Of a stretch of DNA of 12,075 nucleotides, positions 122 through 12,075 are shown in pieces. The stretch's first letter is position 1. The number at the start of each line of letters is the position of its first letter. Source of the stretch: a bacterium (GTDB lineage Bacteria > Zhuqueibacterota > Zhuqueibacteria > Zhuqueibacterales > Zhuqueibacteraceae); the NCBI GenBank assembly GCA_044869275.1, contig JBIOXB010000135.1, forward strand, positions 1 to 12,075, given 5' to 3'. The notes under the pieces were generated by a model. The model had not been told where the DNA came from. It searched no databases and saw only the letters and a program-made list of their open reading frames with translations. A program made the position numbers and the translations under genes.

Positions 122-562
122 TTATGCTGCTTCAAGCCGCGTCACGCGCCCTTCCAATCCGCGCAACGCCTCGTTCTGCTGTTGGTCGGAGGCCTTGAGC
201 TGATCGATCTCTTGTTGCAAGCGATCCTGGCCCGCCCCAAGCGCCATTTTCTCCTGCTGAAACAATTCACAGTTTTTCATGAGGGCGTCAACCGCAGTCA
301 ACATGCTATCGCGAAACTGCGCATCCTTTTTTTCGTTTTCAGCAATTTGATCCGCCAAAGCGTTGATTTGTTTTTGCAAAGCAATTCCTTGACGCTCAAA
401 TCCGTGCGCCATTTCTTGCCGCACGAGTTCAAAATCTTTCGCGGTTTCCTTACGGAAAGCCTCCAACTCGCGGGCGAAGCCGTCCACGCGCTTATTGAGA
501 TTTCCCAAACCCTTTTCTCTTGGGTCTTGCCGAGGCGGATTTTTGCGAGATTTTCCAGGCAT
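122..562 (-). CDS. hypothetical coiled-coil protein, 146 aa
   Basis: ATG at 562 with GGGAGG RBS (571-576) 8 nt upstream. Q/E/K/A/L-rich heptad pattern, ending LEGRVTRLEAA. Has its own promoter candidate. Confidence 0.85.
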   Translation of the reverse strand: MPGKSRKNPPRQDPREKGLGNLNKRVDGFARELEAFRKETAKDFELVRQEMAHGFERQGIALQKQINALADQIAENEKKDAQFRDSMLTAVDALMKNCELFQQEKMALGAGQDRLQQEIDQLKASDQQQNEALRGLEGRVTRLEAA

Positions 563-1585: not shown

Positions 1586-2404
1586 ATGGACGTTGTGAAT
1601 TATCTCCCCCCGCGCCGTTTTGGCGAGATCGACGATCTGCTCGCGTTCATTTCGATTTATGAAGACACGCGGCGCACCCGCGCTTATCGCGCCCTGTTGC
1701 GCGCGCATCAAAAATCCATTCGCGACGCCGTGTGCGTGGAAGGCGGCTGTGGCCTGGGCGTTTTTGCCGTGGAAATGGCGAGGCTGGGTGCACGCAAAGT
1801 TTATGCAGTGGAGCAGAATCCGCTCCTCGCCCGGCTCGCGCGGCAACGCCTCGCGCGCTTGCCCAAAAAACTTGCCCAGCGCATCGAATTGCTTGAATTA
1901 CCCTTGCAAGATTTCCAGCCACCGCAAAAAATTGACGTGCTGGTCCATGAATTGTTCGGCCAATTGCTGTATGACGAAGATCTGTGGGTGTTGGAACATT
2001 TGGCATTTAAGCCCAGGCTGGTCTTGCCGGACGGCGGCGAGTTGCTGGGCGGGGTGGTTTCTTCCACAAATTATGGCGATCCCCTCATGACTCCGGAGCT
2101 TTTGCAATCGCTGCAGGGCGCACTGGTGGCTGGCCTTTTCGAAGAGCGTCTGCGGGAATTGCAATTCCCGGTTTTGCATTGGAACTTCGGAGCAGGACTT
2201 AAAACCGGAACCATTGATCTGAAGGGCTACGAAGGCGATTTGCTTTGTTTTGGCGTGGCCATTTCCCATGCCGGCCGGCGCATTTGCGAAGCAGGCCGTT
2301 GCCCAAACTGGTCGTACGTCTGGACGCCACGGTGCGGCGACCGCTTCGAGATCGACTTTCGCCGCGCCCGCCGCGGCACCGCCTGCTACTTTCAATGGTT
2401 GTGA
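1586..2404 (+). CDS. class I SAM-dependent methyltransferase, PRMT-like (arginine N-methyltransferase-like), 272 aa
   Basis: DxxRTxAY helix, motif I VEGGCGLG, post-I GARKVYAVE, double-E loop IDVLVHELFGQLLYDE (E122, E131), and PNW at the THW-loop position. Confidence 0.85.
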   Translation: MDVVNYLPPRRFGEIDDLLAFISIYEDTRRTRAYRALLRAHQKSIRDAVCVEGGCGLGVFAVEMARLGARKVYAVEQNPLLARLARQRLARLPKKLAQRIELLELPLQDFQPPQKIDVLVHELFGQLLYDEDLWVLEHLAFKPRLVLPDGGELLGGVVSSTNYGDPLMTPELLQSLQGALVAGLFEERLRELQFPVLHWNFGAGLKTGTIDLKGYEGDLLCFGVAISHAGRRICEAGRCPNWSYVWTPRCGDRFEIDFRRARRGTACYFQWL

Positions 2405-10624: not shown

Positions 10625-11461
10625 TTACACCTGCTTGAAAGCGCGATACACCTCCGGCCGGCGGTCGCGCAGAAACATGCGCAGTTGCCGCATCTCCTCG
10701 ATGCGTGATAAATCGCAATCCCCCAGCAACAGCTTCTCCTTGCCCTGCGGCGCGCGCGAAAGAATTTCCCCGCCGGGATCGACCAAGAAACTGCCGCCGA
10801 TAAACTTCACCGTCGCTTCTTTGCCTACGCGATTGACGGCGGCCACAAAGACTTGATTCTGAAAGGCGAAGCCTTGCATTTCGATTTCATACATTGCGAT
10901 CGGATCCTGCACCACGCCCGCAAAAGGCGCGAAGATAATCCCTGCGCCTTGCAATACCAACTGCCGCGTGTACTCGGGATAATGCCGATCGTAACAAATC
11001 GCCACGCCGATTCTGACGCCACCGAGGTCGAATACCTGCGGCGGGGTGTTGCCGGGCCAGTAATAAAATCTTTCATTGAAACACGGCTCTTCGGCGATGT
11101 GCATCATCCGGACGGGGCCGAGCAGTTCTCCGTTCTGCGCGCGCAGCAGAACGGTGGTATCATAATATTCGCCCGCGCCGGCGCGTTCGAATATGTTCAA
11201 CAAAACACTTATCCTTTCCTGTTGTGCGGCGGCGCGAAACAAATGAATGGTCGGACCGTCCAGCGCCTCTGCCCATTGAAAGAATTTCTTTTCGCTGCGA
11301 TGCTGGGGAAAGAACGGCAGCAATCCCACTTCGGAAAAGCAGATGATCTGCGCGCCCAGTTGCGCGGCCTGCTTGACCCAGGCCAGGCCTTTCTCGCGAT
11401 TGGCATCGAGATCATTTGTGACCGCCATTTGCGCCAAAGCAATACGAACTGCTTTATGCAT
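10625..11461 (-). CDS. carbon-nitrogen hydrolase (nitrilase superfamily; N-carbamoylputrescine amidase/beta-ureidopropionase-like) with atypical active site, 278 aa
   Basis: IALAQ, ICFSE (E44), ICYDRHYPE (C156), VNRVG and FLRDRRPEVY motifs. The canonical YRKxHI segment reads VRMMHI. Confidence 0.92.
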   Translation of the reverse strand: MHKAVRIALAQMAVTNDLDANREKGLAWVKQAAQLGAQIICFSEVGLLPFFPQHRSEKKFFQWAEALDGPTIHLFRAAAQQERISVLLNIFERAGAGEYYDTTVLLRAQNGELLGPVRMMHIAEEPCFNERFYYWPGNTPPQVFDLGGVRIGVAICYDRHYPEYTRQLVLQGAGIIFAPFAGVVQDPIAMYEIEMQGFAFQNQVFVAAVNRVGKEATVKFIGGSFLVDPGGEILSRAPQGKEKLLLGDCDLSRIEEMRQLRMFLRDRRPEVYRAFKQV

Positions 11462-11786
11462 GGGTGGATGCTGTTCTCTTCAGTGCTTGCTTTTTGCCAT
11501 TTTTTGATGGCGGCGCTGCAATTTTCATACGCGGTCGCACGATTTGAGAACGGCGCGGGCGCAAGCGGTCGATTTCAACATAAATGAGTGGACGTTTCGG
11601 TTCGCGGTTGAGGCCAGCATTGCGAAAATTGTATTCGCGCAACTCCAGATCGTAAGCAGGCAACAGCACGACTTCCGCACCGCGCGGGATTTTTTGCGCA
11701 AATCGTGGATGCTCGAGAACATACCGATCAAATTCTTGCGCAAGCACAAGGCTCCTAAGCGACAATTCATCCATTTCGGCCTTCAT
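11454..11786 (-). CDS. DUF5647-like protein, putative antitoxin-like partner, 110 aa
   Basis: EFDRYVLEHPRFAQKIPRGAEVVLLP..D.EL.EYN signature (family name recalled, not searched). AAGGAG RBS at 11797-11802. Overlaps both neighbours. Confidence 0.75.
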   Translation of the reverse strand: MKAEMDELSLRSLVLAQEFDRYVLEHPRFAQKIPRGAEVVLLPAYDLELREYNFRNAGLNREPKRPLIYVEIDRLRPRRSQIVRPRMKIAAPPSKNGKKQALKRTASTHA

Positions 11787-12075
11787 AATTTTTTCGCTCC
11801 TTAATAAAGGCTTTTTTGTATTTCACCCAATTCTTTCTGATGTCTTCCTCAGCATTGGTCAAAGCGGCGTTGTAGTCCTCAATGCGTATAAGGTTTTTTT
11901 TCTGCCTTTGCCCCGGTCGCATCAAATCTCTGTGGACGCATCCATGTGCCGTATCATAACGCACGACAGGAACCCACACGTTCTCAATAGTCGTTTCAAA
12001 TTGGACTGCGAATCTCAGAATTTTTCCCTTTTCGCTAATATGCCAATGCCGGTAGCGATCTTCCGGGCTAATCCT
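11767..12075 (-). CDS. partial DUF7718-like (TumE/DUF6516-reminiscent) small protein, putative toxin; 5' end beyond window
   Basis: The frame is open to the window edge: RISPEDRYRHWHISEKGKILRFAVQFETTIENVWVPVVRYDTAHGCVHRD...NWVKYKKAF. RYDxAHGxxHxD motif. GTG 11979 in the ORF track is internal. Confidence 0.78.
   Translation of the reverse strand, partial: RISPEDRYRHWHISEKGKILRFAVQFETTIENVWVPVVRYDTAHGCVHRDLMRPGQRQKKNLIRIEDYNAALTNAEEDIRKNWVKYKKAFIKERKNYEGRNG

Follow-up and report, generated by a model that had tools for sequence, protein, structure and literature searches.

A compact bacterial protein family with a predicted, trimmed PRMT fold that keeps the PRMT catalytic residue set

Protein arginine methyltransferases (PRMTs) share a three-part core (PMC13137591) and a catalogued set of motifs (PMC12925635), according to the available excerpts of those papers, and the accessible part of PMC4860837 describes how two glutamates and a tryptophan form their arginine pocket. 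In T. brucei PRMT7, the amide oxygen of Q329 hydrogen-bonds the guanidino group, a narrow pocket restricts the product to monomethylation, and dimerization runs through an arm whose mutants lose most activity (excerpts of PMC8226133). PRMT sister groups from bacteria have been placed in secondary-metabolite operons and giant synthetases in the available text of Aravind et al. (2012; PMC3417536). According to excerpts of the respective reports, SznE methylates the guanidino group of arginine (PMC11705231, PMC12637814) and BlsL methylates a guanidine in blasticidin biosynthesis (PMC5572114). Methylated arginine and lysine are common in bacterial proteomes (bioRxiv 2023.06.29.546327) and mycobacteria had no characterized arginine writer (bioRxiv 2021.10.06.463415), as far as the excerpts of these preprints go; bacterial arginine writers are mostly unknown.

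Here, we analyzed a PRMT-like gene in a 12,075-nucleotide stretch of bacterial DNA (the window). The initial annotation of this stretch regarded PRMTs as mainly eukaryotic; the PRMT likeness that it noticed holds, while the surprise is smaller, since the available text of PMC3417536 already puts bacterial PRMT sister groups in print. The gene is an intact open reading frame on the forward strand (1586-2404), and its product of 272 amino acids (P0001) carries the following features:

1586-2404, forward strand: predicted PRMT-fold methyltransferase gene (P0001); an open reading frame whose relatives begin at the same methionine (M1 in 173/181)
1586-1660, forward strand: N-terminus and long helix (residues 9-25), kept across the family and standing in for the type I YFxxY/alpha-Y region
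1664-1675, forward strand: D27-x-x-R30, the putative PRMT SAM-binding pair, its role assigned via alignment with CARM1/PRMT3
1739-1753, forward strand: motif I, E52-G-G-C-G56, located in the family alignment
1811-1813, forward strand: post-I acidic residue E76, located in the family alignment
1949-1978, forward strand: double-E loop E122...E131, aligned with CARM1; G125, L128, and D130 within it are near-invariant in the family
2027-2401, forward strand: C-terminal domain (residues 148-272), a predicted trimmed PRMT beta-barrel
2063-2122, forward strand: short insert (about residues 160-179) of two short helices with conserved D165, at the position of the PRMT dimerization arm
2285-2302, forward strand: C234-x4-C239, directly before the N-W loop, with both cysteines in 167/181 relatives
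2306-2311, forward strand: N241-W242, counterpart in profile alignments of the THW loop's H-W

All the residues from which the initial annotation had read an arginine methyltransferase signature were recovered at the codons assigned to them, namely D27 (1664-66), R30 (1673-75) with T31 next to it, motif I, E76, E122 (1949-51), E131 (1976-78), and P240-N241-W242 (2303-11). In the numbering given by the initial annotation, their PRMT1 equivalents would be D51/R54, E100, E144/E153, and the THW loop; the structural alignment to PRMT1 sets model residue 17 on chain residue 41, an offset of 24 that is the same as for D27/D51. The protein has the seven-strand SAM-binding domain of the PRMT fold family with motif I, post-I, and motif II, and motif III is cut down to P143/P148. 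In the N-terminal helix, F12 aligns with the Phe of YFxxY and I15 takes the place of the second Tyr, while N5, D16, F21, I24, and Y25 are kept in the family. The cysteine pair before the N-W loop, lost entirely in 5 of the 181 relatives and by one residue in 9, could possibly form a disulfide or metal site beside the active site.

A phmmer search of PDB sequences returned PRMTs as 55 of 56 matches, the best being CARM1 (E 1e-10), and in that alignment, which covers residues about 25-150, D27/R30/T31 and E122/E131 coincide with CARM1's own residues for these motifs, as do the double-E loop's G125 and L128. When family profiles served as queries, the E-values improved to 1e-13 and 1e-17. Sequence likeness to PRMTs is limited to residues about 25-165, and the C-terminal domain (148-272) found no sequence match among PDB sequences. 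No Pfam or NCBIfam model exceeded its cut-off for P0001, including those for PrmA (Pfam PF06325, 18.1 vs 22 bits; TIGR00406, 17.9 vs 183 bits) and the PRMT5 domain (18.5 vs 22.9 bits). In the HMM comparison of PRMT and PrmA that the initial annotation had proposed, PrmA fell below cut-off and the PRMT5 domain did likewise; the PDB search favored PRMTs.

The AlphaFold2 model of P0001 (pLDDT 90.5, pTM 0.87) matched PRMTs along its whole chain. All of the Foldseek matches listed were PRMTs, headed by T. brucei PRMT7 (E 3e-14, TMq 0.68), and a Foldseek-independent fold search of 48,161 chains put PRMTs of types I, II, and III at ranks 1-15 (Z 22.0-15.4, rmsd 2.9-4.0, 233-260 residues aligned), with PrmA as the next rank (Z 12.2, 137 aligned). 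A further structural comparison gave whole-chain Z-scores up to 22.9. When residues 148-272 were folded alone (pLDDT 93.4), the first 14 ranks of a wide structural search were all PRMT barrels (Z 7.9-4.6, alignments spanning 110-122 of the 125 residues), ahead of the best non-PRMT (Z 4.2, 63 aligned); since Z-scores of 4.6-7.9 are middling by the tool's scale, support for the barrel rests on ranking and coverage. Foldseek found nothing at E<=0.001 for this isolated domain, and PRMT7/9 rows were highest in probability. Structure prediction with a fold comparison, which the initial annotation had suggested as a check, thus ranked PRMTs first for the whole chain and again for the barrel alone. 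PrmA, the L11 lysine methyltransferase, has the class I Rossmann domain in common with P0001, but we rejected it as an identity because its weak HMM matches are under cut-off and its structural match of 137 residues leaves the barrel uncovered. The model predicts that P0001 joins a Rossmann domain to a PRMT barrel, a trimmed version of the complete PRMT fold. In the family, a median of 111 residues (n=181) separates the second Glu from the loop Trp, versus 148 in 31 type I-motif PRMTs, and 31 versus 61 residues follow the Trp, which agrees with the shortened barrel proposed from the sequence at the outset. Arm and barrel together are about 65 residues shorter than in a type I PRMT, and the site of the arm retains about 20 residues, with two short helices in the model.

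Of 8,000 candidates scored in a protein search, 244 were matches. Among the 120 matches listed, identity was 56-100%, nearly all were full length, and the source records were KSB1, Ignavibacteriae, Calditrichaeota, and Bacteroidota. Those that carried a name were called hypothetical or SAM-dependent methyltransferase, the kind of generic database label that the initial annotation had expected. In a profile search of 1.84 billion representatives (27 matches at E<=1e-30), rows 1-32 belonged to the family and were followed by a gap to E 2e-16, beyond which rows matched the N-terminal half only; 115 rows outside the family had the type I double-E pattern in 88 cases and THW in 60. From 218 family sequences, 188 were 240-340 aa long and 181 remained after de-duplication (identity 24-100%). 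In these 181, we counted D27 in 180, R30 in 180, E76 in 179, G125 in 181, D130 in 180, E122 in 168 (Asp in 12), E131 in 179, N241 in 181, W242 in 180, and P240 in 107, with most single misses coming from one misaligned or chimeric row (P0149). Conservation of both glutamates in homologues, on which the original proposal had been staked, is thus high, and of its PNW motif the N-W part is near-invariant while the proline is not. Of the 181 full-length relatives, 167 combine D27, R30, E/D76, E122, E131, N241, and W242. To our knowledge, tolerance of Asp at the first Glu, as in the 12 relatives above, would be unexpected for eukaryotic PRMTs. Two divergent members (P0275, P0276) are labeled as coming from a Candidatus Altiarchaeales archaeon, which may reflect transfer to archaea or a binning error. 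A literature search at the level of titles and abstract openings, covering few subscription journals and no supplements, found nothing on this compact family.

The active-site loop and the N-terminus set the family apart from type I PRMTs. A local profile comparison with 10 other PRMT-like proteins, presumed prokaryotic, placed N241-W242 on the H-W of THW, as did a global comparison with 35 type I-motif proteins in which the W242 columns were low-confidence; the local comparison to type I-motif proteins covered the N-terminal half only. In line with these two profile alignments, the suggestion that W242 is the THW-equivalent Trp appears sound. The position of the THW His is Asn in all 181 sequences, YFxxY is absent from the family (F12 is kept, and the second Tyr position is V/I/L/A), and of the double-E consensus SExMGxxLxxExM the E, G, L, and E are kept while the S and both M positions differ. 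Asn in place of the THW His, loss of YFxxY, and the trimmed arm and barrel rule out type I PRMT identity. Since an amide replaces the THW His and type I motifs are lost, monomethylarginine would, by analogy, be the somewhat better bet for the product if P0001 is an arginine methylase. The initial annotation had reached monomethylation by another route, from the little room left for an arm, and this does not follow, because T. brucei PRMT7 monomethylates yet dimerizes via its arm, its product being set by the narrow pocket (excerpts of PMC8226133); moreover, about 20 residues are left at the arm site. The short arm poses a separate question, that of an enzyme working without the usual dimer.

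Together, the sequence comparisons and the model lead us to favor, with modest confidence, P0001 as a SAM-dependent arginine N-methyltransferase acting on cellular protein. Guanidino methylation as such, whether on protein or on free arginine or another small guanidine, is likely. By comparison with PRMT structures, SAM would be held in the Rossmann pocket by D27/R30, motif I, and E76, and E122 and E131 would clamp the arginine guanidinium, as such glutamates do in the accessible part of PMC4860837. W242 may pack on the arginine side chain and close the pocket with N241 (PMC4860837, PMC8226133, as excerpted), and N241 may hydrogen-bond the guanidino group like Q329 of T. brucei PRMT7 (PMC8226133, in the text available). 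A methyl group would then move from SAM to the arginine side chain of a cellular protein, and the acidic conserved residues D16, D17, D130, D132, and D165 might, more speculatively, bind a basic peptide. We weighted protein over small guanidines because there is no biosynthetic cluster and the conserved surface is acidic, with 13 positions at least 90% acidic and only 4 at least 90% basic, one of which is the SAM-binding R30.

The protein-arginine reading is weakened because the characterized bacterial guanidino methylases SznE and BlsL use small molecules, according to the excerpts of their reports, and because a candidate substrate does not co-occur with the gene. The top-ranked Gly/Arg-rich protein of the host genome (G000) is a 120-aa RRM protein (G000:C36:75267-75629, reverse strand, in L064) whose long Gly/Arg/Ser tail looks like the target motifs of eukaryotic PRMTs. 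This protein was found in 33/43 genomes of the phylum with the methyltransferase vs 83/124 without (p 0.25), and the G000 query went unmatched in 10 of the positive genomes, among them all 5 from family f7, so we rejected it as an obligatory substrate, though it may be one of several. Thermal adaptation was likewise not supported by composition: in 80 of 99 sampled genomes that gave at least 2,000 residues from at most 20 kb per genome (35 positive, 45 negative), IVYWREL was 0.405 vs 0.394 (p 0.12, in a noisy test), with no difference inside family f1. Since the genomes are related, these genome-association tests, like the amidinohydrolase counts below, are descriptive only.

We also considered that P0001 performs the same chemistry on a small molecule, such as free L-arginine, agmatine, or another guanidino metabolite, like SznE, with the trimmed barrel and the N-terminus shutting the pocket. 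The peptide-binding barrel and arm are indeed cut back, the N-terminal tip is in register across the family and well ordered in the model, the known bacterial guanidino methylases use free arginine or arginine-bearing metabolites (excerpts of PMC11705231, PMC12637814, and PMC5572114), and the bacterial PRMT sister groups sit in secondary-metabolite operons (available text of PMC3417536). However, the genomic context points elsewhere. The gene stands alone, flanked by an XPF-like nuclease gene that diverges from it and an enoyl-CoA hydratase gene that converges on it, and its neighbors in the window serve metabolism and repair. Among the 92 loci compared (62 from genomes plus 30 of 32 from metagenomes, some of which may be the same DNA), neither flanking gene recurred beside relatives, no neighboring pathway was common to the loci, and no conserved biosynthetic gene cluster surrounded the family in these loci or the window. 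The commonest shared neighbor, a secreted-looking protein with an FlgD-Ig tail, occurred at only 18 of the 92 loci, mostly in close relatives, and is absent from the window, so an operon partner was rejected; it lies 3' of the gene (L003:6884-8563 and 17 other loci), is 560-900 aa long, and has a signal-like N-terminus.

Among the 75 of 97 distinct nearest-neighbor ORFs that were scanned (22 short or doubtful ORFs were left out), 30 matched unrelated families of housekeeping or metabolism at E<=1e-30 (valS, gatB, ndk, deoC, mtnA, purU, and others), and 45 received no label at that strict threshold. No NRPS or peptide-maturase family was recognized in this set, which argues against a secondary-metabolite role. 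A DDAH-like amidinohydrolase (PF19420) was present in 2/43 positive and 10/124 negative genomes, with none found in G000, so a methylarginine breakdown partner is not supported, and this also speaks against the small-molecule substrate, as do the few conserved basic positions available to a free carboxylate. Taken together, we regard a small-molecule substrate as unlikely, though it is the alternative that survives best. Fused forms did not turn up at E<=1e-8 when proteins 509-2000 aa long were searched, although this search was weak, and a promoter and terminator scan gave nothing informative. A mobile origin was rejected: viral contigs, phage records, and plasmids yielded no relative, and the 5 members scanned had no PHROG. 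Separately, ESM Atlas rows 3-7 and 10 are phage-encoded proteins of 250-313 aa with a feature resemblance to P0001 of 0.94-0.96, and the phage model BFVD A0A6J5L7A5 matches along the greater part of the chain (TMq 0.62, E 2e-11); compact PRMT-fold enzymes from other families may be encoded by phages.

The window holds other genes worth recording. At 638-1300 on the reverse strand is a stand-alone 220-aa ERCC4 plus helix-hairpin-helix protein resembling the archaeal XPF/Hef nuclease (Pfam ERCC4 8e-27; NCBIfam archaeal Xpf 3e-41, below cut-off), and such a stand-alone protein is unusual in a bacterium. A DUF7718 gene cut by the contig end and then a DUF5647 gene (11454-12075, reverse strand) look like a toxin-antitoxin module, and a 146-aa coiled-coil-like protein at 122-562 (reverse strand) has no family above cut-off.

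A PRMT-derived enzyme that keeps its acidic loop could also have shifted to another nitrogen acceptor, such as Lys or His in proteins, an N-terminus, or a base in RNA. A quick tree of the Rossmann part (84 rows) grouped the 20 family rows in one clade (SH-aLRT 99) whose stem is long, at 1.38 changes per column, and gave that clade no placement among type I PRMTs and the other PRMT-like proteins of prokaryotes, so that an origin from eukaryotic type I PRMTs could not be read from it. Judged from sequence, the family is real, well conserved, and its own clade with the PRMT catalytic residue set. A shift of acceptor would fit the long stem, the H-to-N change with YFxxY lost and Asp tolerated at E122, and the family-specific invariant residues Y25, D130, and D165, which type I PRMTs do not have. 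On the other hand, the joint retention of both Glu at 9-residue spacing and the loop Trp in 167/181 corresponds to a guanidinium pocket, going by the accessible part of PMC4860837, and lysine and RNA methylases had far lower fold scores, with the Rossmann domain matched alone. We therefore find a different acceptor improbable.

Of 167 genomes in the phylum, 43 carry the gene, as a single copy (29 among the 105 of high quality), and its distribution is patchy, so that some members of one taxonomic family have it and others do not. Broken copies, with a frameshift and stops, internal deletions, or truncation, were found at 4 of the 62 genome loci (L060, L061, L062, L063); each lies 3' of a CHASE2 cyclase gene, like the intact copies L011-L014, a sign that this lineage is losing the gene. 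Given its patchiness and its decay in some genomes, the modification seems dispensable. One divergent relative (P0131) has Asp/Gln at both Glu positions and N-Y instead of N-W and is possibly inactive. A pseudoenzyme that binds SAM or Arg without catalysis, in the manner of the TbPRMT3 prozyme, would suit P0131 and the broken copies but is very improbable for P0001, as the catalytic and SAM motifs are all conserved, the prozyme is without them (excerpts of PMC8226133), and no second PRMT-like gene that could serve as a partner was found in G000.

Returning to arginine methylation of cellular protein, its fullest version, in which the family is a minimal PRMT of ~270 residues without the canonical arm that writes monomethylarginine on ordinary cellular proteins through an N-W active-site loop in KSB1, Ignavibacteria, Calditrichota-labeled, and Bacteroidota lineages, is a doubtful proposal. 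If it were true, these bacteria would have a dedicated PRMT-fold writer of protein arginine methylation. As a small, single-module PRMT-fold enzyme outside biosynthetic clusters, P0001 would be an easy candidate for expression and assay, and a natural test of two PRMT rules, the need for an arm-mediated dimer and the effect of the THW His position on product type. Interest is limited by the bacterial PRMT homologues already described, the several other families, and hosts that are mostly uncultured.

Compared with known systems, P0001 is closest in whole fold to the eukaryotic type I PRMTs (PRMT6 5fqo/5lv4, PRMT3 2fyt, PRMT1 1or8, CARM1, and PRMT2; Z 21-23, ~250 aligned), which are also its best sequence matches. 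The two share D-x-x-R-T, motif I, the post-I Glu, the double-E spacing, and the loop Trp, yet are only 15-19% identical in structural alignments. Unlike these enzymes, P0001 is without YFxxY (its second Tyr is Val/Ile), has Asn for the THW His and Leu/Ile for the Met after the second Glu, and is ~37 residues shorter between the second Glu and the Trp and ~30 shorter past it; in the structural alignment, the model reaches no further than PRMT1 residue 334. T. brucei PRMT7 (type III; 4m38, 5eku) scores level with the type I enzymes (Z 21.6) and, in the available excerpts of PMC8226133, resembles P0001 in being a single module with an amide (Q329) at the type I His position but differs in having a full arm and an activity that depends on dimerization. 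Its E181-to-Q329 distance is 148 residues vs 110 in P0001, and we saw no sign of nearer kinship to it than to type I. The sister groups of Aravind et al. are likewise bacterial PRMT-fold methylases, but going by the available text of PMC3417536, the P0001 family differs in forming a separate clade that is stand-alone and has no recognized biosynthetic cluster; its loop is N-W, whereas most of the other bacterial PRMT-like proteins have H-W. Other, longer PRMT-like domains occur in the same phylum (G047:C5:25631-26428, G059:C6:18787-19596 (L204), and L199-L203), two of them inside open frames of 4,374 and 1,427 aa. SznE/StzE and BlsL, likened here by their described chemistry alone, perform the bacterial SAM-dependent guanidino N-methylation proposed for P0001, but on small-molecule substrates and inside Streptomyces clusters, as far as the excerpts describe. 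Altogether, the family is a compact, unnamed variant of a known enzyme type with a predicted PRMT fold, and is neither a type I PRMT nor PrmA.
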